64,000 nucleotides of DNA, taken from NCBI GenBank assembly GCA_044892525.1, contig CM097885.1, forward strand, positions 8,434,001 to 8,498,000. Reading direction: 5' to 3'. Position 1 is the stretch's first letter. The number at the start of each line of letters is the position of its first letter. Positions 7,976-59,952 of the stretch are shown here, one piece after another. This stretch comes from Schmidtea polychroa. Its lineage: Eukaryota. Position numbers and translations under genes: made by a program. The notes beneath the pieces were generated by a model. The model was not told the DNA's origin. It did no database searches and saw only the letters and a list, made by a program, of their open reading frames with translations.

Positions 7976-8399
7976 TTCTCTACCAGTTATTGAGATTGCA
8001 TTGCCGTATGTGATAGATAATAAAATGAACAAAAATATCCTAATATCATTGAACTCTTATCATTGTCAACACTTACGAATTCATATCCGTTCATTAAGTT
8101 ACACCATTTCATAATTTAAACGAATAGAAACGAAGCTTCAAAAAAATCTTTATTCTCTAAAATACGCGTGAAACTCCTTTTTTCAAACAAGTTTCTATAA
8201 ATCCAAATATCATTCACTTATATTAATAAAAAAACTTGAATTCAAAATACCTTGCCTCGCGCCTGTGCGCGCAAACCAACAGAAAATTTACAAGTAATAC
8301 TCAATGCGCAAAAAGACAAATTTAAAGACGAATTTACAAACTGACAAGAATCTATAAATTTCACATTCAGGAATCAAAATACACAAAAAGAGATAAAAA

Positions 8400-9750: not shown

Positions 9751-10237
9751 GTTTGACAATTCAAGCAAGATGTATCCAACTTAGCTATTAGCTATGGGAG
9801 CTATTCAGGTCAGAAACTACGTTAACTATAAAAAACTATTAATTATTTGGGGTACAACCTCATCGTCACTGATATTTACAACATCGTCGTCGTCACTAAT
9901 GGTTATTATTTCATCTTTTTTCATCTTTTTCTGGAAATGTATGAATGTCTTATGTTTCATATTGTTTCTAATAATTTATTGATTGTTTGCATTAATTGTT
10001 GATTTTGTAGTAATGTCATTGATTGTAGTGTTTTCGGTGGTTATGTTCCTATTGTTGTTGTTGTAGGTTTTGAATAAGCAATGCTAAAAATTGATTTTTA
10101 GAAGGCATATATTGAGAAATGATTATGGTGTTTATCACAAAACTCAGTATATGTTGATGCTTCATGATTTTGGCATATGGGACATAACATGTAGGTAACG
10201 CTATTATATTTGTGACCATAGTATTTTTCAATAATAA

Positions 10238-11240
10238 CGTTACAGTCATTATGTGAAACACTGTTACAAAAAGTTGGATATTTATAACCTACAAAATAAT
10301 ATTTTTAAAAAATGATATTTTTATAACTGTAAAATTTGATAATAATATCCTCATATTATTAATAATCATAAGCTTTTGCCATTCTTTCTTTGAAACTAGG
10401 AGTTTTGTTATCTTAATCTGAGCTTTAATATTCAAAAATCGTTCCAACAAAATGAATGTTTTTAAAACAAAACTTTATCAACGAAATTCCAAAAACTTCT
10501 CAAACTCCAAATAAATCATCATTTCTTGCGTCTGTGAGCACATACCATTTAAGAACACCGCGCATACAGGCGCGAGGCCGAAATTGGCTGAAACAATAGT
10601 ATTTTCCCTTAATAGCGTCACAGTCATAATGTAAAATACTATTGAAAATGTTGGATATTTAGAATCTACATAAAATATTTTTAAAAAAATAATATTTATA
10701 AAATGATATTTTTATAAAATATATAATTAATAATTTTTATAACAAAATATCTGTTTAAAAGAATCATAAAAATATAGTCATAACTGTTTTCAAAATAACA
10801 AATAACTTATTTCATAATAATAATAATTTCATCAATTAATTGGTTTCCTCATTTTTCACAATATTTTCATAATAAACTAAAAAAACATTGGTTTCATCTT
10901 AGTCATTTCTCATAACTGTTTTCATAATTGGTTTCATAATTACTGTTTTCATAATTCGTCATAGTAATTTCATAAAAATTAATAAAAACATTAATTTCAT
11001 AATAAAAAAATAAACTAAAAACATACATTTTGGGTTCTTGCATGCGAGATTGTGCATTGCATTTTGAACAGTATTTACTAAATAAGGATAATAAATAAAT
11101 TTTATCATTGACTCTCGATCAGGTAACAGATTTTTGACCTGCATTTTCATCATTTACTAAATAATGATAATATTAATATTATTAATTTTAAAAATAAATA
11201 AATTTACCAATAATTCTCGATTCGGTAGCATTCTGGGAAT
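10238..11240 (+). repeat. Diverged direct and tandem repeats next to the pPolB relic
   Basis: 10238-10330 resembles 10619-10715 (acagtcat.atgt.aa.act.tt..aaa.gttggatattta). There are ttttcataat arrays at 10780-11000 and a duplicated tttactaaataa... unit at 11073 and 11153. Confidence 0.55.
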
Positions 11241-38800: not shown

Positions 38801-41800
38801 GCGCTATCGTAATCTATACTAAATTATAAATATCTACACTTTCCTTTATTTAATTTATTTTTATATATTTATTTGTTTTAATGAATTGTTTATACTGTCA
38901 AATTATATTTTTGGGTCGGCTTAGAACGGACAATTGTAGGAGTATTGTAATTTATAAATTGTAATAAAGAATTGTAATTTATCAATATTTTCAAGCATTA
39001 TTAATGAACAAATAATAAACTTGACAATAAGATTGTTTTTATCCATAAACTGAACAAAAAAGTGAAGCAGTGCAAAATGACAAGTTTGTTCGAGACCCAC
39101 GAAAAAATAGAAAAGAGCGTAGTAGCATCAGTAATGCTATGGATGAATCAGAAGGTAATGCAGGTGATCTAGCAGATGATGATGCTCAATCTGAGGATAA
39201 TGATTACACAGAGAACCATTTTGGAGATGACATGATTCAAATGAGTTCTACAATGAACTTTATGTTTTGCAATAAATATATTAAATGTTTTTTTACTTTT
39301 CTTTCTTCTACTTATACACCAGTATATACGGTAATTTGTTTTTACCTAATTACATCCTGGGAATCCTCACTAAGTTTGTCATTAAACCATACCAATTTCC
39401 CCATATGAATATTATTTTTCAAATTTTCAATCAATTTTTATTTTATGCATTCTCCCAACATTTTACTAAAAATGAATCAGCATAATAAATATGCCAGGCC
39501 AAATACAGTAGGTGAGCTACTGTATGGGGTGTATAATCTTCATGTATGCCTTTTTAGGGATGCGGGCATAATTATCCATTTTCTTTTAACTTGTGTTATT
39601 GATAGAAGCCCCGATGATTTTCATATGTTTTTCTGGAGCCTTTAATCACTCTGTCTATCAGTTTGTTCTTTATGGACATGTACTCTTCATATCTGAATCC
39701 GAGTTTTCTAAATATATCGTTATTGCGTTTGTCCCATGTTCCGAGGGAGCATACCACGAATGTTTTTACTGTTGTATGTTCCCACTAACAAGTTCAAAGT
39801 AAAATACTCAATAAAAAGTTTGATTATGTCACCTATATAATAATTCTAAAATAATAATATTTCAAACCAATTTCTTTTCCCTTTCTTTCAGTTGATTGAT
39901 TTTTCTCAGTCACTCCATAACATGATTTAGAAATTTAATAAAAATTCAATTATGATAAGGTTGTGTTAAGAAAATCAATTTTTTTATTTCGTTTAAACGA
40001 ATTAATTTTTAATATTTTATAAATTTTATAAAAGTTTTCCTAATTATTTCAATATGATAGTGTGATTAATTATTATAAGAATGAAAGTTTGTATATTTTT
40101 GTTTTTTCTGTCCATATAATGCATATTTGTATAATTGATAAAATATATCAATTATTGATATAATAATTGATATATTATACCATATTAAACATAGTAAGGA
40201 TGATTGACAGACAAACTTTCATTCTCATAATGTAGATAATGTCTGAGGGATGTCGGAAGAACGAAGACAACATTTACAAGAAGCTGATAGAATTCATAAA
40301 TCAAATAATAATATTTAAACCCATATGAAATAGTGAAATAAATAAATGAAATGAAATTTAGGAAATGGAATAAATAATTTATTTTTATTGTTGATGTCAG
40401 AACTGTATCTACGCTTAGTGATTGTCTTTCAAATAAAGATATCCAATTAATACATCAAAGAACGCTGAGAAGAATGTAGGAAACAGAAAAGAATCGGAGG
40501 AAGTCGTTAGATGAAATAACTATGTTCAATTGGATTGTCGTTGCTTAACATAGTTAATGAATTTTGTTTGCAAGTTTGTATTGAATGGTGTATTAAAAAT
40601 TCTATTTCATTGATAAAATCTAAAAGTGATTCGCATGTTAAGAAATTATTGAACTTGGGAATTATTTGGTATTACTAAATTTAATGTTGAGAATACTGTG
40701 ATTAATATGAGTAAGATAGTTCTGTCTAATGAAGAGTTACGTATTTTAAAATATGGTCCTAACCATTGCATAAAAAATAGGATTGATGAAAATAAATTGT
40801 GTGCAAAAATTGAATGTGTTTATTATAATATATGTAAGTCAAATAAGGATTCTGATCTACTTACGGTAGAAAGTATGCTGAGTGCAAGTACTATTGAGTA
40901 TGTTGATAAAAATAAAAAACAGAATATTAAGGATTTTTTGGTACTGAAGAACTTAGCAAACAAAGATATTAATGTTTGTAAATTTGATAAAGGAAATGGA
41001 TTAGTGATTTTGGACCATGATGTTTATGTGAATAAATTAAATGAAGTACTCTCAGGTTCTCAATTTCTAAAAATTGATAAGTTTCGAAAAAAAGGAGATT
41101 GTCACCTCTAAAGGATGAAGTGATTTTGAATACTATGTTGTGTGATTTAGTTAAGAATAATCATATTGATGAAGAGGTAGCAAAACTAATTCATGCAAAA
41201 GGTTCACAACCAGCTAAATTATATGGACTTCCAAAAGTTCATCAAGACGGAGTTCCCATAAGACCTGTTTTATCTATGGTTGGAACAGCTCAGTATAAAA
41301 TAGCAAAGTATTTGGATGGATTATTAAAACTCTTAATAAAATCTGAGTTTAAATGTAAGGATAGTTTCGAAATTACATCATGTATAAGACAATTGAATAA
41401 AAATAATGTTAATGAGTATATGGTTTCGTTTGATGTATGTAGTTTATTTACTAATGTCCTGTTGAAAGAAACAATCGATTTATGTTGTGAATTATGGAAT
41501 GAAAATATTAGTGCGCATAATATGTGTGATGGATGTGCATTTAGGAAGCTTTTAGAGTTTGCAACTTCCAAAGTTAATTTTCTATTTAATAATGAATGGT
41601 ATGAACAAATTGATGGAGTTGCTATGGATTCGCCCTTAGCACCAACAATGGCTTCAATATTTCTGGCATGTTTAGAAAAGAAAATTGCTTCTTTTCAATA
41701 TGAAAAACCAATTGTGTATAAAAGGTATGTTGATGATATTTTTCTGATATTTAAAAATAATGAACATGTGGAACATTTTTTGGATTACATGAATGGATTG

Positions 41801-43276
41801 CATAAGAACATTGTATTCTCATGTGAAACTGAGAAGGATTCGTGCATAGCAGTAGTATGATGTGAGCTCCCCAGATCAGGAGCTCCCCGCGCCACATATA
41901 CCCCCTCCCCCCCCCCCCCCCGGGAAAAAAAAATTTTTTTTTTAATTTTTTGTTTTAATTAATTGGCCTGGCGGGCTCACACTTTTTTTCATCCCAAAAA
42001 TTAATGTTCCCACCAACGGATTTTATTGGACGATACCTCATCTTAAAGCTCAGTCCAAGACCTTTCGATTGATCCATAGAAGGTATCATCATCATTAATA
42101 TTGACAAAGTTATTAACAATCGATGACCACCATCTTTTCAACGTTAAATTATTATTATTATTCAAAATATTATTAATTGGCCGGGCGGGCTCACACTTTT
42201 TTTCATCCCAAAAATTAATGTTCCCATTATCCGAATTTATTAATCGATAGCTTATTTTGAAGCGTAGTCTGAGACCTTTCAATTGAGCCATAGAAGGTAT
42301 CATCATCATTAACATCGGCAAAGTTATTAAAGTTTTACCGAGACCATTTTTCAAGGTCATTTATTTTTCAAAATATTATTTTCAAGGTCAAGGTCAAGGT
42401 CATTTATTTTTTTTCAAGGTCATTTATTTTTTCAAGGTCATTTATTTTTTCAAGGTCATTTATTTTTTCAAGGTCATATTTTAAAATTTAAATGTACAGA
42501 GTTCCCGACAACGATAATTATTCAACGATAGCTCATTTTAAAGCGCAATGCAAGACCTTTCGATTGATTCATAGAAGGTATCATCATCATTATTATTGAC
42601 AAAGTTATTAACAATTGATGACCACCATCTTTTCAACGTTAAATTATTATTATTATTCAAAATATTATTAATTGGCCGGGCGGTGACATACTTTTTCTCA
42701 TCCCAAAAATTGATGTTCCCACCAACGGATTTTATTGGACGATACCTCATTTTAAAGCCCAATGCAAGACCTTTCGAATGAGCTAATGAAGGTATCATCA
42801 TCATTATTATTGACAAAGTTATTAACATTTTACCAAAAATCATTTTCAAGGTCATATAATTATTAATTGGCCTGGCGGGCCCCTACTCTTTTTCATCCCA
42901 AAAATTAATGTTCCCATTATCCGACCTTTCGAATGAGCCATAGAAGGTATCATCATCATTAATATTAACAAAGAGAATGACTCACCCAATGACTCACCCA
43001 ACGATGTCTAATATTTTTAGAACGATGACTCATCAAGGTCAAGGTCAAATTTTTAATAAAAGGTCAAGGTCATTTATTATTTCCAAGGTCATTTATTTTT
43101 TCAAGGTCATTTATTTTTTCAAGGTCATTTAATTTTCAAGGTCATTTATTATTTTCAAGGTCATTTATTTTTTCAAGGTCATTTATTTTTTCAAGGTCAT
43201 TTACTTTTCAAGGTCATTTAATTTTCAAGGTCATTTATTAAAATAATTATTATTTTCTAAGTTTTTAGTTTCTAAG

Positions 43277-43351
<75 letters not shown>

Positions 43352-46300
43352 CTATCCGACAAAATATTCTGTCCCCCTATGGGTATTGCTAGCAAGGGTA
43401 CTGGTCACATTCAACATGTCGCAAGGGTACTGTTTACAAAATTACTGGTAAAAATATTCAAGACAAAACTTTCTAAATTCTAAATATTATTCTTTAAATA
43501 TACACTAAAATTTATTAACACATTCACATTCATCATCTCCACAGTTCATAACATTTTCAACAACATGATCTATACAATCCCTATATACACACGGTTCAGT
43601 ATCCATAAATTCCTCCATAGGTTCATCAATTTCTTGAATGCTTTCCTCATCATTTTGAGTGTTTTCTTCATCTGTTTCATCAAATTTCGAATCTTCACTC
43701 TCTGCTACCCAGTCTATATTTAATGCGTTTGTAACAGATAATATATCCGCCATTTTCACACCAGATATTTCTGCTAATTTTTCCAATAAAAAGTTTATTA
43801 TAAATTCTAAATATTAAATAATTCGATAATTAACTAATCATATTAACCTTTTTCTGTAGTCATTATTAGTATTTTAAAACTATAGTATATATTTGTTTAT
43901 AGAAAATATAGAATATAAGCGAAAACAAATATGACTAAATACATTTATTAAATACAACATTAAAATAACTGTGAAAGTCTAGCAGACATAATTTTCCAAA
44001 TTGGAGAATACACATCATTATTATCAACTTTATATCCTTGGATTGTAATTGTTATATACCAATTTTCGTTTTCTTTGAAACTGATTTCATCAAAGGAATC
44101 ATAAAATTTTGCATATCGGTTGTTGAAAAATGCATTTTGATTGCATGATAGATTCGTATTCAACCTTTTGAAAACATCATCTATGGTTTTAATATCTAAC
44201 ATTGAAAGCGTGCCGGTTAAGCTGTTAATTCTACATTTACCAGTTTTGAAATATATTATTGGATATTTATTACTTCTATTGATAAGTTGTTGTGGTTTCC
44301 CTATTGGAAATACCATTTTTGATACATCAGTTTTTGCCCTGTAATTTATATTTGAAAGCATTTTAATGAAATAATTTTAAAAACTTTGATATATATAGGT
44401 ATTTAAAAACAGAGTTCATTTAAATTATCAATATAAACAATAATTATATAGTTTAAATTTAAAAAATGGAATTACGAAATGATGCAGTATACCAAATCGT
44501 TGGTCCAAGTGGTAGCGGGAAAACTTTATTTGTTTGTAAATTACTAAAATCAAATTTGTTTAAAACAAAATTCAACAATATTTATTGGCATAGGGGCGCC
44601 GACGAAGAACACGGATTGACGCAATCAAGTTTCTGTCAGTTGAAAAACATGAAAATAGTAAAGGGCTTTGATAAAAACTGGTCAAGTCGTTTGAAGAAAG
44701 ATGATGTCATCATTATCGATGATTTGTATCAAGAAGCCAATAAAGAAAAGGACTTTAATAATTTATTCACAAAAATCAGCAGACATGTTGGTGTAACAGT
44801 TATTTTCATAACACAAAATCTATTTCATCAAGGTGGTGCACATCGAACACGTAATTTAAATGTACAATATTTAGTTATTTTCAAGAATCCTAGAGATGCA
44901 ACTGTCATTGATTTTCTTGGACGACAAGCATACCCTAATAACCGTAATTTTCTTATCAGTGCATTTCAAGATGCCACGAAAATACCGCATGGGTATATAT
45001 TTCTCGATTTCACACAACAATGCCCTGATGATATACGGGTAAAAACAGATATTTTCAACCCAAAAGGTGCCATGGTATATAAACAAAGTTCAAAACAAAT
45101 TTGAAAACATATAAATCATGTTTTCAAAAACAAGGATATCGGGTAAAAAACAACCAAAAGTTCCACCAACAACTAGTTATACTCCATCTAAAGATCTTAT
45201 TACAGAAAATTTTCCTGCAATGAATCTTATTTCGAAAAATCCTAAACCTAAACCTAAAAGTAAAACCACTAAGAAAGTAAAAGTTGTTAAAAATCATCGG
45301 AGTTTCCCGTTTTTCAATACATTGTTAAAGGCACCAAGTATGAAAAGAAACAGTATTTTGCAATCATTTCCAAATTATGTTGTCGATGATTTACTCGATA
45401 TTATACTTAAAGTAGTCAAAGGCAAGATTAAAATCAGTAAATCTAAAAAGCAATTATTGAGTAAACATAGGAAACCTTTGCTATCATTAGTAAATAATAA
45501 AAATCGTCAACAAATGAGAAAAATTATATATAAACAACAAGGGGGATTTATCGGTGCATTGATACCTTTAGCAATATCATTATTAGGTGGAATAATAGGA
45601 AGTCGATCATAAACAATGGGTGCTAATCCTTCATTACCAGACATTAAATTTAATATTAAATCTTCTTGTTGTAATGGAGAAGATTTGGACGAACCCGGAA
45701 GACGAAGCCGGTTTTGGTGGAGTGGCAAAATTAAGGAAAAGAGTTCCGAATTCGAAAAAGGAAACTCAGAAGTGGTTATCAGACCAGCTTGCGTACAGTT
45801 TGAACAAACCAATGCAGAAACGATTCCCAACAAGAGCATATAAAACATATGGAATAAATGATTTATGGCAAATGGATTTGATGGAGATGATACCTTATTC
45901 GAAAATTAACAATGGGTATAAATATATTTTAACATGTATTGATGTATTCAGTCGGTTTGCCCGAGCAATACCCGTCAAGGCAAAATCTGCAGATGAAATG
46001 TCCAAAGCTGTTAATCATTTATTTAAAGATGGACATCCTAAAAACTTGCAAACTGATTTAGGTATTAATATTATTATTTTTATTATTATTATTATTATTT
46101 TAGGTAAAGAATTCTACAACAGTAAAGTCAAGCAAATCCTCAATAAAATGAAAATAAACCATTACTCAGTACATTCTCAATACAAAGCTGCTCATGTTGA
46201 AAGATTTAACCGAACTTTGAGAGATAGATTAAAGAAATTATTCGTGCATCAAGGTAATAAAAAATGGGTATTGATTTTACCAAAAATAATAACCAGTTAT

Positions 46301-49300
46301 AATCACTCATCACATCAAGGACTGAATGGATTAAGGCCGATTGATATCACGTCAAAAACAATCTATTCTAAAAAACCTGAAAAAATTACAAAACCGAAAT
46401 ATAAAGTAGGTGACCATGTTAGAATTAGTAAAATTAGTGCATCACCATTTATTAAAAATTTTGATACGAATTGGAGTGATGAAGTCTTTGTAATTTCAAA
46501 AATAAATACTAAACAGAATCCTGTAATGTATGTCATCAAAGACAATGATAACAATATTGTACAAGGAAAATTTTATGAGCAGGAATTACAAGTTATTCCT
46601 CCCCCAAAAGTATTTAGAATTCAGAAGATTTTGAAAACTAAAAATAAAGGCAAGGATAAACAATACTATGTCAAATGGCATGGTTATCAAAACCCATCAT
46701 GGATATCAGAAAAGGATCTAGTAAAGTGAATTTTTATACTATTTTACCAAGCAATAGTTGCCCGCTTATTCATCCAGATAATCAAGCCAGTAAATTCATG
46801 GTCAATCTCCAGAATCCGATTTCTTTAAATGGTGACTGGGAAGTTGCACTGCAAGATTTTACATTCGTGTACAATACATTCCCATTTTATAGTCAATGTA
46901 AGATTGATTTCAAAAGGAATGCTATGAAAACATGTAGTGGTATCTTTATTATCAGTAATTATGATAAAACATCATATTCCGAATCAAATATTAGATCAGC
47001 ACTGCTCTATGTTTTACAAGGATGGATTAAATATCAGTTGTGATTTTAAACCATTTACAATAACATTCGAATATATTGAAGATGCCAAACGATTGGGTTG
47101 CAATAAGTTGAAAAATGAAGTTATGGAAACAGATTACTTATTACGCTTTGATCTATTTGAAGCAAACAGTGTAATGAGAGAAGAAATCAAAATATCAGTG
47201 TCGTATAATAATGAAGTTGAAGAATCATTCACCTTCGCTGACGAATTATATATTGATAAACTTGATGTGTTACTTAAATATTTAAAGTATAATTGTTCAC
47301 ACATATTTAAAAGTTTGGACATTGTGAAAGATTTGTTATTTACCTTCAGTTTGAATGATGACATTTGCGAAGTTACATTTGATAAAAATTTGACAAATAC
47401 ACTTGGATTAGAGAAGCAGCAATATCGGGAAAAATCGGCTGGTATACGTAAACCAAGAATACTTGAACATCATCAACAAATGTTCATATATACTAATATT
47501 ATTGAGCCTATAATAGTTGGTGATTCCAGTGTTCCTCTATTGAAATCGGTGTGGATTGGAAAATATGAACATGATGAAGTTGTCAATATAAATATAGATA
47601 ATCCCATGTATTTACCAATTTCAAGCTCATGTATAAACAATATAGAAATAAATATTCGTGACGATAGTGGAAAACTTATAAACTTCCCAAAAGACTCAAA
47701 AACTCATTTGACACTACATTTTCGTAAAGTAGATGGCTAATTCCGATATTATTAGTATGTATAGTGATAGCCAATCTGGTGGTGAATTACCATATTTTAT
47801 TGGTAAACAGTATGGATCAGGTTGGTTAAAAACAATAGGGAGATTTGCACTTCCCATTCTTAAACGTATTGGTAGTTTTGGCATGAAAACTGCAAAAGAT
47901 GTGATTATGAATGAACAGAAAATATTACCATCCCTAAAAACAAATGCTTTAGCTGAGTTAGGGAAGGTTCTACCTGGAGTTGCTGGTATGTTTCAAAAAG
48001 ATACACCTCCAGTCCCAGCTCCAAAACGTAAAGGGCATGGAATATCGCGTATAAACAAACGAATGAAAGGACATGGAACTATATTTGCAAAATGATTTGT
48101 GGTAAATCCGAATTATGTATATTTGATAGACCGTCGCCCCAGGCAGTAATAGAATTTGGTGCCTTTGAGGAAGTTTTTCCTATGAATTCAATTACTGATA
48201 GTAGAAATGATATCGAGTTTTATATTAATGGTTCGCAAACTGAATATTTAGATTTGAACGATACTTTATTGACTGTTCAGATCAAGGTTGTAGATAAAGA
48301 TAGAAAGGTTTTGGATGCCAATGCGGATGTATTACCAAACAATTTCATGTTTCATACTCTGTTTAAAGATGCAGTGTTGGGATTTAATAATATCAAGATT
48401 GAGGGTGGAAATAATACATTCATTCACAAGGCTTTGATAGAAACTATTTTAAATTACAATTCAGATACTAAAAATACCTGTCTTACACCTATGGGTTATG
48501 CAGCAGCAGATGATGAAAGAAAAAAGTGGGTTAAAGGTTCAAAAGTATTCACTATGTGCTCATCATTACAACTTGATTTTATGGATCAACCGAAATATTT
48601 ACTACCGGGAGTTAATATACATATTAGACTGAAAAGATCTGATTCTGCATTGTCTCTTACTAGTGCAACTGGTGCACCAATATGTCAATTAGTTGATGCA
48701 AAATTATTGGTGAGAAGAGTTCGAGTAGACCCGTCAGTATTAGCTGGTCATCAATTGGGGCTTAATTCAAAACATGCAATTTATCCTTTAAAAACAAAGG
48801 AAATTGTACAATTTGCTATTGCTAAAGGTGCTTCATCATTCTATAAAGAACAAATATTTGGTGACAGAAGAATGCCTAATTTTATTCTGGTAACATTTCA
48901 AAGTGAAACGCAATATAATGGATCGTATACTGCTTCCAGCTCAAATTTCAAAAATTTTGGTGTTACTTCATTGACTTTATCGAAAAATACTGATTATAGA
49001 GAAACATATACTCAAGATTTCGAGAATGATAATTACTGTGCGACATATATGCAGAGTATTGTTAGAAATCTGGGTTATTTAGATAAAAACTTGAATTGCG
49101 GAATAACTCTTGAAGAATTTAAAAGCAAATACCCATTTTTCACATTTGTTTTAGCTCCCGATTTTGATTTAAATCAGAGTCAATTACCACAAAACGGGAA
49201 TTTACGACTGGATATAAAGTTTGCAAAGGCCATTACTGAACCAGTACATGTTATAATATATGGAGTATTTGAAAATGAAGTTCAAATTACTGCAAATAGA

Positions 49301-49757
49301 ACCGTGCTAGTATAAATGTATACAGAAACACCAAAAAGTTGTCATGGAGTAAGCTTTTCAATACTGTTTAATTTATTAAAGTAGTTCTGTTCAGGTCAAT
49401 AGAATTGGAAAACAGATATTGGGAAATGAATTTGTAGGAGTTTTTCCTCTCGATAAAATCCCATATTTGAGCAATAATCAAGCCATAATCGTCAATACTC
49501 AATCGTCTCATCTTGGTGGAGAACATTGGATTGCTATATATGTGAAACCTAGTAATATATTCGTGTTCGATCCTATGGGTTTCTATTACCCTGCTTTGTT
49601 GGTATCAAAACTACAAACAATGGGGAAACCTATTGTATATAATAAAACAATGTTTCAAAATCCCTTGACACAAACATGCGGTCAACATTGTTTAGCTTGG
49701 TTGTTGTATAAAAAATTTGATGATTAATAAATGTATTTTGTATCCTTTGTTGTTGTT

Positions 49758-49788
<31 letters not shown>

Positions 49789-52556
49789 TTATTTCTATTA
49801 TATGAGCTACTAACGAATTAAAATATTTTAATAATGTGATAAACTTTTATTTAATAAAGTATTTAATCCCCAAATGATTATTTTATTACATAAGAAACCG
49901 TGAATTGTATTTGGCAGAGTAATTATGATAAATTCCGATTTTAAATTTTGATTAAGTCCTTTAATATTAACAATTTATTATTAAATTTACTATTTTACAC
50001 TAAATATTTCAAAAACAAATATTCCAAAAGATAATTTAAGATACATTACTCTTTTTAATGAAAATGAGCACTGAAAGTTAAAAGGTACACTCGAAAACTC
50101 ACTCAAATATAACCGAAAGTTATAAAACAACAAAACTAAATTCGTTTAAATATTTTATAGCAATTGGTAGTTCTTATAATTTCCTAACTTTAATGAAGAT
50201 TCTTACCACCTGAGAATAATATTGTTAATTTATCTCGGTGTTATTAAAATTATCTTTCGACTTTACGCTTCTTACCATTTTAGAATAAGATTTTTTATCA
50301 AATTTGACTGATTCAATTTGATGGAGTTATTGTTAATTCGTTTTATTATATATACTCTGAGTTTATCTGACAAGATATTTTCTCCCTCTATGGGTACTGT
50401 TCACAATTGGTACTGCTCGTAAGGGTACTGGTCGTAAAGGTACTGGTGTGTTTTATTTAGGCAAATTTTTGGTTATTATTTAGCATTAAATTCATTGGTA
50501 ATTTTTTAGAGTTAGCGGGATTTTACTAACATTTTTTTTTGTGAATTTCATGTTAATTGAAAGAATATTTAAGGTTTAGTGTTAATTCTAAGATAAATTT
50601 AATTAATTTCTTGATAATTTGCTATATTTTATTAATTTTGATGATGATGATGACTTTGTAATGATAATTTGACTAAATAATTTTTTCATATATTTTTCTA
50701 AGAATATTTACACATTGATGAACTTTAAAATATTGAAAATCTAAAGTTGAAACAATCTAATTTTTTCACGGTGATGATATATTTAAAATCTACTTGAAAA
50801 TTATTGTAAAATATACCTAAATTTAGTTTGAAAGATATATCATGTTATAATGGTTATAATTATGATCAATCAATGAGATATTATCATCTCTAGTTAGGTA
50901 TTTGATGACACATGTGGTTAAATATTTATTTTAATGAATTTTGATCTTTTAGTGGACTCTTTGAATTTAGCTACTAAATTATTTCAATGGAAGAATGTCT
51001 GTGACAATTAAATAAAATTCATATTTTGAAGAATTTTCTATAGATTTTAAGATTTATTAAAGGGCACAAGTGGGTGAAATTATATTCGGTTGGATTTAGT
51101 GAAGGTTAAGATGGTAATATATACGATTTAAGGTGTTTTAAGGGGTAAAGATATTTGGTGAGGGATCGGTTAATGTTTTGAATATTTATATATTCTTATT
51201 GGTAAAATATCAAATTTTCAAGGGAAATAGTCAGCTATGAATAGTTCCTGTGAAATTATATCGTTTTAGAGGTTGTGATGAATGTTATTGCACAGTAATT
51301 TATGTTTCAGAACCAGTTTTTATTAATTATCCACGGTTTTATTAATGGGTAATGACTAATTTACTTGGTTTTGACAATGCAATATTTGAAATATTTAGAG
51401 ATAATTGATATCAAAGGTTATTGCTTTAAATTATTTTATTTAACATTTAAAGACGGACATTCATTATGAAGATAACGGTAACAAAAATATTGACTTAAAA
51501 GAGTTAGACATCGACAACTAAAGAAAATTTAACTTTCATGAAGGAAATTTATGATTTTAATTATATTTCCTGAAATTAAATAGGTTGAATATCAGTTAAT
51601 CTATTGAAGGAATATTGTTATCGGATGGATAAATGATATTTTGCTAAATTACCTTTGCTAAATATTATTTTAAATGACTAAAAATAACAAAATTAAGCAA
51701 TATTCATAAATTTATCGCACAAAATGTCCATGTTTTGGTTACTCAAACATCTTAAATTTCTCGCAAAGATATATTACGTCTAATGATCATCTAATTAAAT
51801 TAGAAAATAATTGTTACTTTATAATATATATTTCTAAATAATAGGCCCCTTAATTGGATAAATGATAACCATATTTCTATTATGACTCCTTTAATTATTT
51901 TTGCCTCAAACAAATTTACTCCAAATGATAAAGAATTTAAAATTATCAATGAATAATGACCATGTTTTTCTCATATTATTAACTATTGTAACGAACATTA
52001 GATGAATAAATTAATTTTTGCTTTAAATGACTACAAAGTTAACCAATAAATTAGTCGCTCGACATAAGTGTAAAGTTACATTTAAAATATTCACGAATTT
52101 CTGATCATCTCACTAAATTACCTAAGAATTTCTAAATGATTAATATAGCCTTGTGACATGTTGAATGTGACCAGTACCCTTGCTAGCAATACCCATAGGG
52201 GGACAGAATATTTTGTCGGATAGACTAGGAGTATATACACCCATGTTAAACAAGGTATGTGTATATAGAATGTATGTATAAAATTATCGCTCCATATTGA
52301 CAACTTCCTGTAAAGGCAAACACAGAATACTGCAAACATAATAATACTCTACCCCATAACTTAGTGTGTAAAAATTATTTAAGGTTTTTTCACTAATAAT
52401 AATAATAATTATAATAATAATAATAATAATAATAATAAAGTTTAATGGATTGTATATATGTGTAAAAAATATTTGAGGTTTTCACGAATATTGTTACAAA
52501 TAATTGTTAATGGGTTGTGTGTGTGTGTGTAAAAATATTTTAGGTTTTTAATATTG

Positions 52557-52621
<65 letters not shown>

Positions 52622-52855
52622 GTTTAATGGGTTGTATATGCGTGTAAAAAATATTTGAGGTTTTCACGAATATTGATAATAATAATGGTTTATGAGTGTT
52701 TTTATGTTTTTGACTAATATTTGCAATAATAATAATAATAAGTTTAATGAGTTGTATGTGTGTGTAAAAATATTTTAGGTTTTTAATATTGATAATAATA
52801 ATAATAATGGTTAATGGGTTGTGTGTGTAAACCATATTTTAGATTTTTCATTAAC

Positions 52856-52903
<48 letters not shown>

Positions 52904-53417
52904 TCCCGCGCGTGTTAATACTTTAAAAGAAAATATTGAAAATTTAAAAAATAATAATATTTATGCAAAGCATGTGCAATAATTATGTCTTTGTTAATTA
53001 AGTAAACTTTAGTATCAAAATACGTTTTTAAAATATATTTAAATTTTAAAATACCGCAACGTAATATATTTTGTTCTACCCCTTCATTGATTTAAGTTGG
53101 TCGGAATTTAATAATAATTATATTATACCCTTTGAGACATGTTGAATGTGAGAAGTACCCTTGTAACCATTACCTATGTAAGCAGTACACATAGGGGGGC
53201 AGAATATCTTGTCGGATAAACTCTGACTATATATGATAATAATAATAATAACTCCCGTGCGTGTTAAAATAAATAATAATACTTTGAACTTGTATTTGAA
53301 AATAATTTACGACATGTTGAATGTGAGTAGTACCCTTGTGACAATTACCCATGTGAGTAGTGCCCTTGTGAGCAATACCCTTAGGGGGACAAAATATCTT
53401 GTCGGATAGACTAAGAG

Positions 53418-53470
<53 letters not shown>

Positions 53471-54077
53471 TTAATATTAATAATAATAATAAATGACCTT
53501 GAAAAATAAATGACCTTGAAAAAATAATATTTTGAAAAAATAATATTTTGAAAAAATAAATGACCTTGAAAAATTTAATGATCACTTAATTAAAACAAAA
53601 AATTAAATTAAAAAATAACCTTGAAAAAAAAAAGACCTTTATGAGTCACGCGACCTTGAAAAAATAAATGACCTTGAAAAATAAATGACCTTGGGAATGA
53701 CCTTGAAAAAATAAATGACCTTGATGAAGCAGATGAAGAAAACACTCAAGATGATGAGGAAAGCATTCAAGAAATTGATGAACCTATGGAGGAATTTACG
53801 GATACTGAACCGTGTGTATATAGGGATTGTATAGATCATGTTGTTGAAAATGTTATGAACTGTGGAGATGATGAATGTGAATGTGTTAATAAATTTTAGT
53901 GTATATTTAAAGAATAATATTTAGAATTTAGAAAGTTTTGTCTTGAATATTTTTACCAGTAATTTTGTGAACAGTACCCATGTTACTTGTTGAGTGTGAG
54001 TAGTACCTTTGTGAGCAATACCCATAGGGGGACAGAATATCTTGTCGGATAGACTAGGAGTATATAATAATTATAAT

Positions 54078-54120
<43 letters not shown>

Positions 54121-57100
54121 CTTAGAAACTAAAAACTTAAAAAAAAAAAATAATAATAAATGACCTTGAAAAAATAAATGACCTTGAAAATAATAAATGA
54201 CCTTGACCTTTTATTTAAAAATTAAATGACCTTGAAAAAATAAATGACCTTGAAAATAATAAATGACCTTGACCTTTTATTAAAAATTTGACCTTGACCT
54301 TGATGAGTCATCGTTCTAAAAATATGATGAGACAACGAATGAGTCATTGTCTTTGTTCTAAAAATGTGATGAGTCATTGTATGATAGAAATCTATATCTC
54401 ATTAGAAAGGTCTTGGACTGAGCTTTAAGATGAGGTATCGTCCAATAAAATCCGTTGGTGGGAACATCAATTTTTGGGATGAAAAAAAGTAGGGGCCCTC
54501 CCGGCCACTTAATAATATTTTGACAAATAATAATAATTTAACTTTGAAAAGATGGTGGTCATCAATTGTTAATAACTTTGTCAATAATAATGATGATGAT
54601 ACCTTCTATGAATCAATCGAAAGGTCTTGCATTGGGCTTTAAAATGAGCTATCGTTGAATAATTATCGTTGTACATTTAAATTTTAAAATATGACCTTGA
54701 AAAAATAAATGACCTTGAAAAAATAAATGACCTTGACCTTGATATTGAAAATAATATTTTGAAAAATAAATGACCTTGAAAAATGGTCTCGGTAAAACTT
54801 TAATAACTTTGCCGATGTTAATGATGATGATACCTTCTATGGCTCAATTGAAAGGTCTTAGACTACGCTTCAAAATAAGCTATCGATTAATAAATTCGGA
54901 TAATGGGAACATTAATTTTGGGATGAGAAAAAGTATGTCCCCGCCCGGCCAATTAATAATATTTTGAATAATAATAATAATTTAACGTTGAAAAGATGGT
55001 GGTCATCAATTGTTAATAACTTTGTCAATATTAATGATGATGATACCTTCTATGGATCAATCGAAAGGTCTTGGACTGAGCTTTAAGATGAGGTATCGTC
55101 CAATAAAATCCGTTGGTGGGAACATTAATTTTTGGGATGAAAAAAAAGTGTGAGCCCGCCAGGCCAATTAATAATATTTTGGAAAATAATAATAATTTAA
55201 CGTTGAAAAGATGGTGGTCATCAATTGTTAATAACATTAAAACTATTAAAGATATATATGATACCTATAGCTCATTCGAAAGGTCTTGGACTGGGCTTTA
55301 AGATGAGGTATCGGTCAATAAAATCTGTTAACGAGAACATTAATTTTTGGGATGAAAAAAAGTGTGAGCCCGCCAGGCCAATTAATTAAAACAAAAAATT
55401 AAAAAAAAAAATTTTTTTTCCCGGGGGGGGGGAGGGGGTATATGTGGCGCGGGGAGCTCCTGGTCTGGGGAGCTCCAATCCTACTACTCATAGCATTTCT
55501 TGGCTTGTTAATTAAACAATATTAATGTCCAATATTAAAGATCATAATAAAGTCTGTATGAGAGAATTAGGAATGTCGGATTTTAAAATCTTATCAAAAA
55601 ATATTTTTTCAATAAAAATTTGAGAACTAGAAGAAATTTTGGTGCAACAAAAACAGCATATTGACAACATATAATAGACATACATGGTAGATAGATATGG
55701 TGGTCAAGAAATAAAGTTATTTATTTCTTAATTGCACGATATTATTCGAGTTCAAAGTTTGAGATAAGTTATAAAGAACAATGAACTTATAATTTTTACA
55801 CAATTACATGAAACTGTTAAGATTTTGTTAAGAGTTGAATACGAAAAATAAGTCAAAACTAACTGATTTATAATTTTAACCTTAATGCAGATATTGACCA
55901 CAAATATTTTTTATTGATTTAAAATAATATATACGGAATTTTAATTAGCTAAATTAACTTAAATTTGTTTTAATTTAAAATGAGCTTTTAGCAACTTAGA
56001 AAAATAATGATTGCAAACTAGTAATTTTTATCGATTTGTTTAAGTTAGAATAAAGGAAATACCTATCTAATACGGTATTTTTATAGTTATATAGTATAGT
56101 TATATACAGGGCCGGCTTTAGTTGGAAGCGGTGGATGCAAAGCATCGGGGCGCCTCTCGGAAAGGGCGCTAAACAATTTAGAATTTTAGTTTCTTTTTAA
56201 TATTTAACAAAAAAACCATTAACAAATTTTTTTTTAACAAGAATTTTTTTTTTTTTTTTAAATAAAATTTCCTTGAAAAACTACTGGCCTACTAGTTTTC
56301 GAAGTGTTTAAGAATTGTTTAATTTCGCAAAACAAAATAAATTATACATGCATAAATTTATTTTGAAACGGCCTGCTATATTCGGTTTAGTTATTTCGAT
56401 TAAAAAAATTAATGCTAAAAAAAATTATTTTAAAAGTCTACCAGTTCTATTCAGTTTTCAATCAGTTCAGTTGTTATTTGGTAAACTTTTTTCGCTAATA
56501 AAAAAAAATTTAATATTAAAATTTTAATAGTAAAATAAAAAAGTGTTCAGTACAGTTTAATAGTAAAAAAGTGTTTTGTTTCAGTACATTAGTTATTTTG
56601 CGGAATTGAATCATTGTACGGTGGTAGGTATTATTTAATTATTTTTATCTTTACTTCTAAAATTTATATTTTTTTAATTAAAAAAATTTTTATTAGCTTA
56701 CCTATATCATAAAATATGAATTCAAAGACAAAATTATCCGGGTGTGAAAATCGAAAACGAAAGGCGAAGAGAGAGTTGGAGGAACAAAAAAATCAGGGAA
56801 GCCTTAACCAATATTTAAAAAAAGCAAATTTGACAATACCTACAATAACGTTAACGGATGATCAGATTATTCCAGAGGATAGCACAAATGGTGAAGTTAG
56901 AAATAATGCCACTAATGAGACACAATCTATAAATTTACAAACAGAAATAACATCTTCATCTAACAAAGAGCTTCAAACCATACATTTAACTGAAACTATA
57001 AGTAATAGTGCTGATTTTCATTCAATTGATCCCGCAACTTGGCCTAAATTTATTAATGATAAAATTAGAAAAATTATTATTGAGCAAGGACCAATGCAAA

Positions 57101-59952
57101 TAAGGAAAGAAGTTTATCCCCGTGATGATGATGGACGAAGTTTTACTAATTATTATTACAATCGTAAATTACCTAATAATGAAATTATACCAAGATCATG
57201 GTTAGTTTATTCAAGTTCAGCAAACCGTGTTTTCTGTTTTTGTTGTAAATTGTTTATAAATCAAATAGAAGGAAACCAGCATTTGATTATAAATGGTTTT
57301 AGTTGCTGGAGAAATTTGTCAAAAACACTTGCAGCTCATGAAGTTAGTACATTACATGTTAATTGTTTTTTAAAGTGGACTCAATTAAAAAAGAAAATGA
57401 ACAACTTAACTACAATAGATGCTGAACTCGTAAAAGTATACGCAGTTGAAAAGAAACATTGGTACGCTGTTTTGGAGAGAATTGTCGAAATCATAAAATA
57501 TCTTGCCAGACAATGGCTGTCTCTGCGTGGCTCGTCAGATACTATCTATGAAAAAAATAACGGTAACTTTTTAAAATTTGTAGAACTTTTTTCTAAATTT
57601 GACATAGTAATAGCAAATCATTTAGCAAAGATACAAAAAAAGGAGACACAAACAGTTCATTATTTAGGCAAAACTATACAAAATGAAATAATATCCTTGA
57701 TCTCTTCGAAAATTTTGCAAAATATTATTCAAATGATAATTAATGCCAAATATTTTTCTCTAATATTAGATTGCACTCCTGATATTAGTCATAACGAACA
57801 AATGATATTTATAGCCAGATTTGTCAATAAAGATGAAGATAATGAAGTTGCAATAAGCGAACATTTTTTGGGATTTTTAAAAGTATCTGACTCCACAGGA
57901 AAAGGTTTAGCAACTTATCTTATTGACAACATTAAAGATTTAGGTTTGAATATTAATGATCTACGTGGACAAGGTTACGATAATGGCGCAAATATGCATG
58001 GGAAAAATAATGGTGTCCAAAAACGTATTTTAAATTTGAATTCTCGTACACTTAATTTAGTAGTGAATGATGCAGCCAAAATTAACACAGAATCATTTAG
58101 TTTCTTTTCCACTATTCAAACAATTTATAATTTCTTAAGCGCTTCAACAAAACGATGGGAGTTCTTAAAAAAAATACTAAAATTACAGTAAAACCTTTGT
58201 CAGCCACCAGGTGGGAATCAAGAGTCGATGCCCTTCGTCCACTTAGGTTTGAAATAGCTGAAATTTTAGATGCTTTAGTTGACATTTATGAAAACCTAGA
58301 AATAGATAATAATACAAAGCATGAAGCTAAGGCTGTGGCTTTCAAAATAAAAGAGTATGAATTTATATGTTCAGTGGTTATTTGGTACGATGTTTTAAGT
58401 AAAGTTAACGTTGTTAGTAAACTGCTCCAAAATCCAAATCAAAACTTAAATGTTTCTTCAGTTGCGTTAAATAGTCTTATTAAATTTATTGAAGAATATA
58501 GATCCGATGAAAATTTTAGTCTTATTCTTCAAACGGCAGAAAATATAGCAGCTGATTTAGAAATACCTGCGAAATTCAAAGATAATACGTTACGAAGAAG
58601 AAAGAAAAAAATTTTTGGTTATGAATCTGTAGACGAAACGCCAGTTGATCCGATACTTAAATATAAAATATCATTTTTTCTGCCAATTTTAGATATTACT
58701 ATCAATTCTTTAAAAGAAAGGTTTAATCTTTTCACAAAATATAGTGAAAAATTTGAATTTATACATAATATAAAAGAAATTAACAAAATGGATGATAATA
58801 CATTAAAAAAACATTGTTCTGATTTAGAAATAATGCTAACCGATGGCGAGAAAAAAGATATATCTGCAACAGAATTATTTAATGAAATAAAAATAGCAAA
58901 GGAATTTTTGAAAGACTTTGAAAACCCACTAAACATCTTGCAATATATATATAAAAATCTACTGGATTCCATTTTTCCCAATTTTGTAATTGCTATTAAA
59001 ATATTTTTAACTTTACCAGTTTCAGTTGCTAGCGGAGAACGATCTTTTTCGAAGCTTAAACTAATTAAAAATTATTTAAGATCAACAATTTCACAAGAAA
59101 GATTAGTTGGTTTAGCAATGATATCGATTGAAAGTGATATATGCGACAAATTAGATATACATAATTTAATTGATGAATTTGCCAGTTTAAAAGCTAGAAA
59201 AGTAAATATCTAGAATAATAGTTTTGTCAATTTTTATACAAAATATATGTATGTTATGTAATTTTTGTATATTATAATATTGTTTCAATAAAATAAAAAA
59301 ATATATAAACAAAATAAAACCTGTTTTTCACTTGGAAAAGAATTATTATTAATTTTTTAATGTTTTTATTACAAATTTAATATTGCCAATTAAATTACGT
59401 TAATTCCAAAAAACCAATAAAATAAATGGGCGTCTAAAATGAGTTTCGCATCGGGGCGCTACTAATGCTAGAGCCGGCGCTGGTTATATATAGCTAGAAT
59501 AATTTTAAACCATTTTCAAATATAAAATGTACACAATAGTTCCACATTTGAAACTTTAATTCTTCTAGGATTATTTTAGCTGTGCAGGATGCTCATATTT
59601 TCTTAACAAACCTTCTAGTTCGAATTGCGTTTTAGTTGATGTGATAAGACAATTGGGAGGAGTTCCATTTGTTAGAACTACTGTTCCACAATCTATGATG
59701 AGGTTCGGTTTGCTTGTTGTGAGAACAGACTTTTATTTATATCAGCTTTCTTTCATCCAACCCAATTGATGGGATTACACTAAATCCAATCGATATTTCA
59801 AAGTCTCCGGGTGGTAGCAGTTCGGGTGAAGCAGCTTTAATAGGTGGGCATGGATCGATTGTTGGAATTGGGACTGACATGGGAGGGTCGATTCGTATAC
59901 CGGCTGCGTTTTGTGGTATTGTTGGGCTGAAACCGACTCATGGACGTCTGAG
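35858..59952 (+). CDS. FAAH: Fatty-acid amide hydrolase-like amidase; exons ~35858-36061, 36101-36211, 36255-36308, 37928-37999, 59569-59702, 59746-59952; 3' exons not found in window
   Basis: N-terminal TM helix; [23 protein letters not shown] (catalytic Lys); [54 protein letters not shown] (amidase signature). Phases are consistent across GT-AG introns. The first, in-frame intron is less certain. Confidence 0.88.
36640..37900 (+). repeat. Near-pure AT degenerate tandem satellite in FAAH intron
   Basis: The block ataatataattgtaatagaaataaacataaataaataataataatacagataaaaa recurs at roughly 200-bp spacing. Confidence 0.75.
38447..39331 (+). mobile_element. Non-autonomous pogo/Tc2-like DNA transposon
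   Basis: TA-flanked TIRs CCGTATATACT / AGTATATACGG, with a second left end at 38621. A C-terminal transposase remnant [11 protein letters not shown] plus an acidic tail lies at ~39120-39230. Confidence 0.7.
40698..41850 (+). pseudogene. Penelope-like retroelement reverse transcriptase (frameshifted), split by the Polinton and continuing at 55495-55524
   Basis: [59 protein letters not shown]. Removing the Polinton and one TSD copy restores [18 protein letters not shown]. Confidence 0.9.
41851..43683 (+). repeat. Left inverted arm (~1.83 kb)
   Basis: Reverse-complement match to 53721-55488, comprising the terminal GC block, ~214-bp units, TCAAGGTCA arrays, (ATT)n, a ~90-bp motif and the 3' end of the acidic ORF. 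Confidence 0.9.
43505..43863 (-). CDS. Small acidic protein with Cys-containing C-terminus; 2 exons (43863-43848, 43806-43505)
   Basis: ATG at 43863 plus a 41-nt GT-AG intron (43847-43807) gives in-frame [21 protein letters not shown]...[10 protein letters not shown]...CGDDECEC. Confidence 0.6.
43960..44361 (-). CDS. 133-aa protein; TBP-like N-terminus, possibly OB-fold/SSB-like C-terminus
   Basis: The ATG-initiated ORF diverges from the ATPase gene. LSNINYRA and [11 protein letters not shown] recall TBP NIV and LIFxSGKxV strands. The functional call is tentative. Confidence 0.5.
   Translation of the reverse strand: MLSNINYRAKTDVSKMVFPIGKPQQLINRSNKYPIIYFKTGKCRINSLTGTLSMLDIKTIDDVFKRLNTNLSCNQNAFFNNRYAKFYDSFDEISFKENENWYITITIQGYKVDNNDVYSPIWKIMSARLSQLF
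44466..45104 (+). CDS. A32/FtsK-HerA-like genome packaging ATPase
   Basis: Walker A GPSGSGKT, Walker [36 protein letters not shown] and PHGYIFLD. Confidence 0.93.
   Translation: MELRNDAVYQIVGPSGSGKTLFVCKLLKSNLFKTKFNNIYWHRGADEEHGLTQSSFCQLKNMKIVKGFDKNWSSRLKKDDVIIIDDLYQEANKEKDFNNLFTKISRHVGVTVIFITQNLFHQGGAHRTRNLNVQYLVIFKNPRDATVIDFLGRQAYPNNRNFLISAFQDATKIPHGYIFLDFTQQCPDDIRVKTDIFNPKGAMVYKQSSKQI
45118..45612 (+). CDS. Basic core-protein precursor with C-terminal amphipathic peptide
   Basis: Lys-rich, ending [25 protein letters not shown] as is typical of Polinton small structural ORFs. TATA-like tatataaa at ~45076. Confidence 0.75.
   Translation: MFSKTRISGKKQPKVPPTTSYTPSKDLITENFPAMNLISKNPKPKPKSKTTKKVKVVKNHRSFPFFNTLLKAPSMKRNSILQSFPNYVVDDLLDIILKVVKGKIKISKSKKQLLSKHRKPLLSLVNNKNRQQMRKIIYKQQGGFIGALIPLAISLLGGIIGSRS
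45616..45843 (+). CDS. Putative overprinted N-myristoylated small protein (75 aa)
   Basis: aaacaATGG start 3 nt after the upstream stop; MGANPS (MGxxxS) followed by SSCC. It overlaps the integrase 5' end in another frame. Confidence 0.5.
   Translation: MGANPSLPDIKFNIKSSCCNGEDLDEPGRRSRFWWSGKIKEKSSEFEKGNSEVVIRPACVQFEQTNAETIPNKSI
45674..46729 (+). CDS. Retroviral-like (rve) integrase with C-terminal chromodomain; 42-nt intron at 46062-46103
   Basis: DDE triad WQMDL / QTDLGKEF (after splicing) / [27 protein letters not shown]; chromodomain [12 protein letters not shown]. First ATG (MEKIW) is at 45674. Confidence 0.93.
   Translation: MEKIWTNPEDEAGFGGVAKLRKRVPNSKKETQKWLSDQLAYSLNKPMQKRFPTRAYKTYGINDLWQMDLMEMIPYSKINNGYKYILTCIDVFSRFARAIPVKAKSADEMSKAVNHLFKDGHPKNLQTDLGINIIIFIIIIIILGKEFYNSKVKQILNKMKINHYSVHSQYKAAHVERFNRTLRDRLKKLFVHQGNKKWVLILPKIITSYNHSSHQGLNGLRPIDITSKTIYSKKPEKITKPKYKVGDHVRISKISASPFIKNFDTNWSDEVFVISKINTKQNPVMYVIKDNDNNIVQGKFYEQELQVIPPPKVFRIQKILKTKNKGKDKQYYVKWHGYQNPSWISEKDLVK
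46726..47740 (+). pseudogene. Minor capsid (penton-like) protein; GTG start and one frameshift near 46940-47040
   Basis: The N-terminal [26 protein letters not shown] and C-terminal [44 protein letters not shown] are in different frames. Confidence 0.8.
47733..48095 (+). CDS. Core/membrane-active precursor (pVII/cupiennin-like) upstream of MCP
   Basis: [30 protein letters not shown], with a basic tail containing KGHG repeats. Confidence 0.8.
   Translation: MANSDIISMYSDSQSGGELPYFIGKQYGSGWLKTIGRFALPILKRIGSFGMKTAKDVIMNEQKILPSLKTNALAELGKVLPGVAGMFQKDTPPVPAPKRKGHGISRINKRMKGHGTIFAK
48092..49315 (+). CDS. Double-jelly-roll major capsid protein (Polinton PY/hexon-like), 407 aa
   Basis: [73 protein letters not shown]. 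The start overlaps the upstream stop (ATGA). Confidence 0.92.
   Translation: MICGKSELCIFDRPSPQAVIEFGAFEEVFPMNSITDSRNDIEFYINGSQTEYLDLNDTLLTVQIKVVDKDRKVLDANADVLPNNFMFHTLFKDAVLGFNNIKIEGGNNTFIHKALIETILNYNSDTKNTCLTPMGYAAADDERKKWVKGSKVFTMCSSLQLDFMDQPKYLLPGVNIHIRLKRSDSALSLTSATGAPICQLVDAKLLVRRVRVDPSVLAGHQLGLNSKHAIYPLKTKEIVQFAIAKGASSFYKEQIFGDRRMPNFILVTFQSETQYNGSYTASSSNFKNFGVTSLTLSKNTDYRETYTQDFENDNYCATYMQSIVRNLGYLDKNLNCGITLEEFKSKYPFFTFVLAPDFDLNQSQLPQNGNLRLDIKFAKAITEPVHVIIYGVFENEVQITANRTVLV
49316..49727 (+). CDS. Adenain-like cysteine protease; 2 exons (49316-49348, 49395-49727)
   Basis: FVGVFP; VNT..GEHWIA (His); FDPMG (Asp); FQ..TCGQHC (Gln/Cys). ATG follows the MCP stop directly, a 46-nt GTAAGC...TTCAG intron restores the frame, and AATAAA overlaps the stop. 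Confidence 0.85.
52340..52860 (+). repeat. Degenerate tandem repeat with (AAT)n spacers inside the element
   Basis: Recurring ttaatgggttgt...tgtgtaaaaatattt(g/t)aggtttt, about 6 copies. Confidence 0.7.
53721..55488 (-). repeat. Right inverted arm (~1.77 kb)
   Basis: Mirror image of the left arm, with substitutions and a different number of ~214-bp units. Confidence 0.9.
56107..59482 (+). mobile_element. hAT transposon (Tip100/ZMYM1-like), 3,376 bp
   Basis: TIRs CAGGGCCGGC / GCCGGCGCTG, with an exact 8-bp TSD GTTATATA (56099-56106, 59483-59490). gcatcggggcgc occurs near both ends. Confidence 0.93.
56716..59213 (+). pseudogene. hAT transposase with TTF zinc finger, frameshifted near 58165
   Basis: [58 protein letters not shown]. 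It is split into two overlapping ORFs at an A-run, and the CxxH segment is missing. Confidence 0.9.

Follow-up and report, generated by a model that had tools for sequence, protein, structure and literature searches.

Polinton/Maverick elements of the animal adintovirus type are characterized by (AGT)2 ends, a 6-bp target-site duplication (TSD), long terminal inverted repeats (TIRs), and genes for an ATPase, an rve integrase, a double-jelly-roll capsid protein, and a protease. All of these features are shared by the element described here, which occupies positions 41851-55488 of a 64,000-nucleotide stretch of Schmidtea polychroa DNA (contig CM097885.1 of assembly GCA_044892525.1, positions 8,434,001 to 8,498,000 of the forward strand; hereafter, the window). 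Unlike autonomous Polintons, it carries no polymerase gene. At 13.6 kb, it falls inside the range of 12.7-24.6 kb given for vertebrate Polintons in PMC8097293, while its TIRs of ~1.8 kb are longer than the 46-1447 bp given there. Both arms of the element harbor dense, inward-facing arrays of the 9-mer YCAAGGTCA, and these arrays are confirmed as a real feature of the locus.

The 9-mer is identical to the NR5A (FTZ-F1/SF-1/LRH-1) response element and to the FTZ-F1 elements of schistosomes. NR5A2 is a pioneer factor that binds TCAAGG(C/T)CA as a monomer, including sites in SINE B1 (PMC11102866, in part). The in vivo meg-8.3 site of Schistosoma mansoni FTZ-F1 also lies in repeated sequence (PMC8673669, in part).

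Receptor-type motif arrays in the two arms

The window contains 42 copies of YCAAGGTCA versus 0.57 expected by shuffling (highest of 100 shuffles, 2). Of these, 41 lie inside the element, and the sole outside copy, at 26009, is the only one in the other ~50 kb. When the arms alone (3.6 kb) are shuffled, 200 trials yield a mean of 0.1 copies and a maximum of 2. The left arm harbors 21 copies, every one on the + strand, and the right arm 20, every one on the - strand, such that all of them face inward. All 41 conform to the NR5A extended half-site YCAAGG(C/T)CA, 39 being TCAAGGTCA and 2 CCAAGGTCA.

In the left arm, the copies are grouped into array L1 (42351-42476, 8 × TCAAGGTCA, one DR0 triplet among them), a single TCAAGGTCA at 42846-42854, which occupies the corresponding slot of a 215-bp subrepeat, and array L2 (43033-43233, 12 × YCAAGGTCA). 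On the - strand of the right arm, R1 (54692-54779, 5 × TCAAGGTCA) mirrors L1, and R2 (54161-54303, 8 × TCAAGGTCA) mirrors L2. A third array, R3 (53494-53724, - strand), has no left counterpart and holds 7 × YCAAGGTCA together with degenerate copies and a TGACTCA at 53642-53648. Spacing within the blocks is 17-19 bp in 21 of 35 cases, while 5 of the 35 are direct repeats with a 6-bp overlap (DR0); all 8 occurrences of the DR0 form, AGGTCAAGGTCA, in the window are inside the element. An earlier note on this DNA had placed ~15-20 copies on each side, some of them as direct repeats. Its counts and coordinates are right, and it had overlooked the single site at 42846. Because the arms are inverted-repeat copies of each other, their symmetry and polarity amount to one observation.

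A second motif, TGACTCA, which we take to be an AP-1-type site, occurs 7 times in the arms versus 0.1 expected (maximum 2 in 200 shuffles) and points inward like the NR5-type sites. Three copies are located on the + strand at 42978, 42990, and 43026 (42978-43032), the last of which abuts L2, and three on the - strand beside R2, with 5′ ends at 54376, 54346, and 54310 (54304-54376). One copy per arm abuts the head of L2 or R2, whereas the sequence around the remaining two is not the same in the left and right arms. In Drosophila, Fos works together with Ftz-F1 downstream of JNK (PMC4610234, in part), which is an analogy only.

The ability of a flatworm NR5 protein to bind such sites is documented for S. 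mansoni FTZ-F1. In electrophoretic mobility shift assays (EMSAs), this protein bound 7 of 7 oligonucleotides with YCAAGGTCA versus 4 of 30 without it; the bound set includes T-rich contexts and a DR0 oligonucleotide, and TCAAGGTTA was bound in 2 of 2 oligonucleotides (PMC8673669 S4 table). FTZ-F1 is broadly expressed in the S. mansoni worm (PMC8673669, in part). The nuclear receptors of Schmidtea mediterranea include FTZ-F1, HR39, two NR4A, two COUP-TF, and one TR4 (PMC8363021 Table 2, in part). On the basis of the schistosome EMSA and the presence of FTZ-F1 and HR39 in S. mediterranea, a host NR5 protein would very likely bind the array in vitro. The variants CCAAGGTCA (2 copies) and TCAAGGTTA (1 copy) in the arrays should stay bindable since the EMSA bound them. 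The earlier note had assigned the motif to NR5A and ERR receptors. The NR5A assignment is supported by the motif match and the seven bound oligonucleotides, but ERR is reported to be absent from S. mediterranea and from all parasitic flatworms analyzed, while being present in Macrostomum (PMC8363021, in part), and is an unlikely candidate for the arrays in a planarian host.

Proposed function and competing explanations

It is proposed, with a confidence just short of even, that the arrays serve as a host FTZ-F1/HR39 and AP-1 platform that acts as an enhancer and opens chromatin for the early genes of the element family. Host FTZ-F1 or HR39, together with AP-1, would bind the arrays and open the chromatin at the element ends. 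The opened ends would then switch on early genes, which are sited beside the ends in complete relatives, with the polymerase at the right. In three relatives from metagenome contigs (L111, L116, and L130), a polymerase-like open reading frame (ORF) is oriented inward and begins 370, 993, and 75 bp, respectively, short of the contig's right end, such that the terminal repeat would lie upstream of it. An element-encoded TBP may serve the TATAAAC boxes of the late capsid genes; if the element drives its late program with a TBP of its own, the early step would fall to host factors. In the present polymerase-less copy, the arrays would be inherited family baggage, and any effect on the FAAH-like host gene would be incidental.

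In planarians, Polintons are targeted by piRNAs and acquire H3K4me3 and RNA in the course of differentiation, and their de-repression is tissue-specific and ascribed to change in the surrounding chromatin, not to sites in the element (PMC8532177, in part). A broader hypothesis, which is unlikely, is that animal Polintons use terminal nuclear-receptor-site arrays as a host-sensing early switch. NR5 and AP-1 would open the ends in particular tissues or after wounding, polymerase and viral TBP would follow first and capsid later, and the many copies would scatter FTZ-F1 platforms genome-wide, host introns included. If the arrays do act through FTZ-F1/HR39 and AP-1, the waking of integrated Polintons would gain a named host factor and a defined target, testable in an animal with working RNA interference and ATAC (assay for transposase-accessible chromatin), and the ends of Polintons would share a principle with the enhancers in adenovirus inverted terminal repeats (ITRs). 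If the arrays are neutral, they are an ordinary minisatellite in a transposon end.

Conservation of the 9-mer beyond its spacers was assessed within the window on array units found with an 18-bp reference at a set mismatch limit. At ≤5 mismatches, the core has 12 mismatches in 342 positions versus 52 in 342 for the flanks, the units being non-independent, and anchoring on the flanks alone recovers a perfect 9-mer in 16 of 16 units. Also in favor of the platform, a given 215-bp unit would contain this 9-mer by chance with a probability of about 0.0015. A second comparison used read contigs of 4 of the 23 listed runs over 42700-43075, a range that takes in the single site rather than the long arrays themselves. 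It yields 32 variant places, all within 42738-42894, and none of them falls in the single site.

Several observations nevertheless weigh against a functional role. The contrast between core and flank is gone at ≤6 mismatches (63/459 vs 79/459, p 0.17), and the flank counts are inflated by register shifts in T runs and by DR0 units. Between the left and right arms, the core differs at 2 of 123 positions versus 6 of 214 for the other array positions (p 0.72); for the whole arm, the figure is 77 of 1554 (p 0.12 against the core). In the read contigs, 42895-43075 is without any variant, spacers included, and the chance of finding none in nine sites is 0.2-0.3. The array copies are themselves non-independent, as they derive from an 18-bp tandem unit and the arms copy each other. 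The slot in the 215-bp subrepeat that holds TCAAGGTCA in 3 of 8 units is occupied by TCAACGTTA in 4 and by TCAAAGTTA in 1. Two degenerate copies near 53641-53659 do not match the EMSA-bound variants. Finally, arrays occur in 0 of 70 metagenome loci with a related capsid, although a terminal repeat is shown in none of these loci.

The architecture of the repeats bears on how the arrays arose. The outer repeat is composed of ~215-bp subrepeats, and L1 and R1 begin at the homologous slot of this subrepeat. The arrays form a minisatellite with 17-19 bp units (18-bp tandem unit, 91-96% match) that varies in T-run and spacer length, in a 6-bp AGGTCA duplication that gives rise to DR0, and in unit number (8 in L1 vs 5 in R1; 12 in L2 vs 8 in R2). 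Variation of this slippage type explains the copy number with or without selection on the motif, and a 6-bp slip makes a new perfect site because the 9-mer begins and ends with TCA. R3 starts at a TCATCAA microhomology that joins a copy of an acidic ORF to the array head and is followed by another block of (ATT)n plus an inner module, which recurs several times in the right half. The junction and the recurring block suggest template switching between the ends. Other units without the motif have also been amplified, namely the 215-bp unit, a 16-bp unit at 53516-53559, and (ATT)n.

A neutral origin carries an appreciable probability, clearly below even. An NR5-like 9-mer would have arisen by chance in one 215-bp subrepeat, been amplified by slippage and template switching, and been mirrored by the inverted repeat; a receptor may bind, and the element would gain nothing. 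The tandem unit, the TCA at both ends of the 9-mer, the amplified units that lack the motif, the microhomology origin of R3, the absence of the motif from 5 of 8 units at the 215-bp slot, and the non-significant conservation tests all speak for such an origin. It accounts less readily for the amplification of a unit that matches the textbook site perfectly and adjoins a second canonical motif (TGACTCA, 7 vs 0.1 expected). Moreover, the three copies with one substitution, at position 1 or 8 of the core, correspond to EMSA-bound variants, whereas the two degenerate copies near 53641-53659 do not. Alternatively, the arrays could be iterons for an element-encoded protein (a terminal protein/polymerase complex, the integrase, or a packaging or core protein), comparable to the subterminal repeats of CACTA or Foldback transposons, with the likeness to receptor sites being coincidental. 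Their subterminal location 500-2000 bp from the ends, strict polarity, and near-regular 17-19 bp spacing fit this explanation, as do the several DNA-binding proteins encoded by the element family. Iterons are nonetheless improbable: the exact host-motif match and the adjacent TGACTCA would be left unexplained, the copy number is unequal between the arms, and the literature searched yielded no account of such binding in Polintons.

COUP-TF, TR2/TR4, and NR4A prefer DR0 and AAAGGTCA forms, of which the element offers 8 AGGTCAAGGTCA and 3 AAAGGTCA sites. Repressive or tethering receptors of this kind could silence or cluster integrated copies, implying latency rather than activation. Two COUP-TF, one TR4, and two NR4A are present in S. 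mediterranea (PMC8363021, in part), and planarian Polintons are enriched in the B compartment (PMC10558129, in part). The likelihood of this scenario is nevertheless slight, as most copies are isolated NR5-monomer extended half-sites with only 5 of 35 spacings being DR0, and piRNA already accounts for the silencing of planarian Polintons (PMC8532177, in part).

Two further roles of the arrays were considered and rejected. For a structural or RNA role, L2 as single-stranded DNA is unfolded (z 0.28), and no Rfam match is present in the element. For a coding role, the frames that cross the arrays are short low-complexity artifacts, and a reading frame would be lost at spacings of 17, 19, 20, and 25.

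The element, its relatives, and the host locus

The element measures 13,638 bp, has AGTAGT...ACTACT ends, i.e., (AGT)2//(ACT)2, and is flanked by the 6-bp TSD CATAGC at 41845-41850 (left) and 55489-55494 (right); such ends and duplications are given as marks of Mavericks in PMC8097293. The left TIR (41851-43690, + strand) comprises a C-tract, the ~215-bp subrepeats, the motif arrays, (ATT)n, an inner module, and the 3′ part of the acidic ORF. The right TIR (53718-55488, - strand) aligns to it with 1477 identical and 77 mismatched columns (~95% identity over aligned columns) and many indels. The inner module lies after the (ATT)n run at 43348-43429 (+), and extra copies are located at 54056-53964, 53424-53329, 53218-53126, and 52227-52146 on the - strand and at 50364-50418 on the + strand. 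The acidic ORF is a Cys-containing frame of 102 aa at 43505-43813 (-), the 3′ part of which is duplicated in the right arm at 53678-53899 (+). This duplication suggests that copying extended the inverted repeat toward the interior.

The gene block reads on the + strand. It encodes an A32-type packaging ATPase (44466-45104, Pox_A32 E 2e-07), an integrase with rve (PF00665, E 6.6e-08) and chromodomain (45674-46729), a putative minor capsid protein (46675-47740), a double-jelly-roll major capsid protein of 407 aa (48092-49315), and an adenain-type protease frame (49380-49727, Peptidase_C5 E 1.2e-06). The minor capsid label is inferred from position, and the gene consists of two overlapping frames here and one ORF in relatives. 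The structural model of the major capsid protein (pLDDT 85.9) matches an iridovirus capsid in Foldseek with an E of 4.7e-17, and PBCV-1, mavirus, and Sputnik were also matched. The gene block contains 6 TATAAAC boxes versus 0.96 expected (as many in 0 of 200 shuffles). These boxes, at 44432, 45078, 45529, 47632, 47677, and 48050, precede the ATPase, core-type, integrase, 120-aa, and capsid genes. Upstream on the - strand, a 133-aa chimeric remnant ORF (43960-44361) resembles the start of the relatives' TBP-like genes in residues 1-45 and a different neighboring gene in the remainder; it stands head-to-head with the ATPase gene. Within the integrase gene, positions 46061-46102 form an AT-rich insert of 42 nt that keeps the reading frame, has GT...AG ends, and is bordered on both sides by an 8-bp direct repeat. 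The insert is missing in all 3 relatives for which this position was located and looks like a newly gained short intron.

A protein-primed DNA polymerase B, as expected of an autonomous Polinton, was not found: tblastn with the polymerase-like ORFs of four relatives gave 0 matches in 41851-55488 at E ≤10. Thus, the element is a polymerase-less, non-autonomous Polinton derivative and not an intact Polinton. Its previous identification as a Polinton agrees in this qualified form with the ends, TSD, integrase, ATPase, capsid, and protease. The right interior (49750-53480, ~3.7 kb) is gene-free and contains at least four inner-module copies, along with a second unit that is repeated between (ATT)n runs, and it shows no remnant of a polymerase. 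Outside the element, 8323-10271 (-) harbors the remnant of a broken Polinton-type polymerase-like gene (tblastn E 3e-66).

A scan of metagenome contigs yielded the 70 loci with a related capsid. Of these, 21 are at least 3.5 kb long and were gene-mapped, and nearly all of them keep the element's gene order. Four relatives have a polymerase-like ORF of 1150-1370 aa on the opposite strand. In Pfam, only an endonuclease VII domain is found in these ORFs (3 of 3), and searches of NCBIfam and PDB sequences with them returned no name; the one ORF tested by Atlas features, that of L130, resembles polymerase-B clusters. The relatives' TBP-like ORFs match Pfam TBP in 4 of 6 tested, with E about 1e-17. 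A blastn of the arms against the capsid-related loci gave no match, and the 7 longest loci checked are without a terminal inverted pair. The absence of arrays in the metagenome relatives is therefore no test of conservation. The putative minor capsid gene is tandem-doubled in three relatives (L128, 1423-3475; L129, 2-1830; L130, 5610-7684). Another contig, L126, begins with bacterial-looking coding DNA upstream of the ATPase (1-2460), in which one stretch looks by eye like a phosphatase-type gene interrupted by a short intron, and it is possibly chimeric.

In the viral_contigs set, capsid searches returned 0 relatives. A triple-motif pattern found 110 stretches there (109 loci), by inspection mostly Gly-Gln codon repeats, and an AT-flanked motif pattern found 5 viral loci and 6 from prokaryotes, in each of which the 9-mer is present 2-4 times. 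None of the 120 pattern-search loci matches any element protein. Among sequencing runs, 10,530 contigs of run X1 align to 376 bp of the repeat, compared to 53 of X8, 51 of X12, and 1 of X18; these figures are not a copy number. The element family is abundant in at least one sequencing run. None of the runs on record as containing the sequence is listed as RNA.

The host insertion site is a decayed reverse-transcriptase ORF (41135-41850, +; RVT_1 E 3.8e-08), presumably Penelope-like, whose frame resumes past the right TSD. Mapping of exons with two homologues places the element in an intron of about 21.6 kb (38000-59567, +) of a FAAH-like amidase gene, in line with its earlier assignment to a FAAH gene. 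The exons lie at approximately 35858-36212, 36252-36299, ~37935-37999, ~59568-59691, and ~59734-59951 on the + strand. The gene matches the Amidase profile with an E of 3.6e-29; behind a 99% match, the amidase exon has its nearest named relatives in Heterobilharzia (73%) and Schistosoma japonicum (70%), which marks the host as a flatworm, and a search with exon 1 gave no match. The arrays are at least 4.4 kb from the nearest amidase exon in a transposon-filled intron, and at this distance an effect of the arrays on the FAAH-like gene, as had been suggested, is without support. Two hAT-type transposons (DUF4371 / Dimer_Tnp_hAT) are found at 56105-59480 and 14993-16912; the former shares the amidase intron with the element and has its transposase in two frames. 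A 1.2-kb nested tandem repeat in an amidase intron (36646-37889) is extremely AT-rich (8% GC).

Comparison with known systems

In adenovirus ITRs and viral enhancers, host-factor or nuclear-receptor sites recruit transcription factors for early transcription or replication. Those sites have been tested and are mostly few and heterotypic, in contrast to the homotypic minisatellite of the present element, which is known from its sequence. NR5A response elements differ in a similar manner, as the element has ~20 copies per end in a minisatellite recognized from sequence alone. Mouse SINE B1 is a further parallel, being a mobile element whose NR5A motifs are bound by the pioneer Nr5a2 at zygotic genome activation (PMC11102866, in part). 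However, SINE B1 is a short retroelement exploited by the host, whereas the element described here is a virus-like DNA element with dense arrays in its own termini.

No description of NR5-type arrays in Polinton ends was found in the literature searched, including the available parts of PMC8502044, PMC10558129, and 10.64898/2025.12.11.693146, with Repbase, subscription journals, and bioRxiv supplements, which may contain one, lying outside the search. While the element class and the occurrence of receptor sites in mobile elements are already known, the dense NR5-type array in Polinton ends appears to be the new part, and a function for it is plausible.

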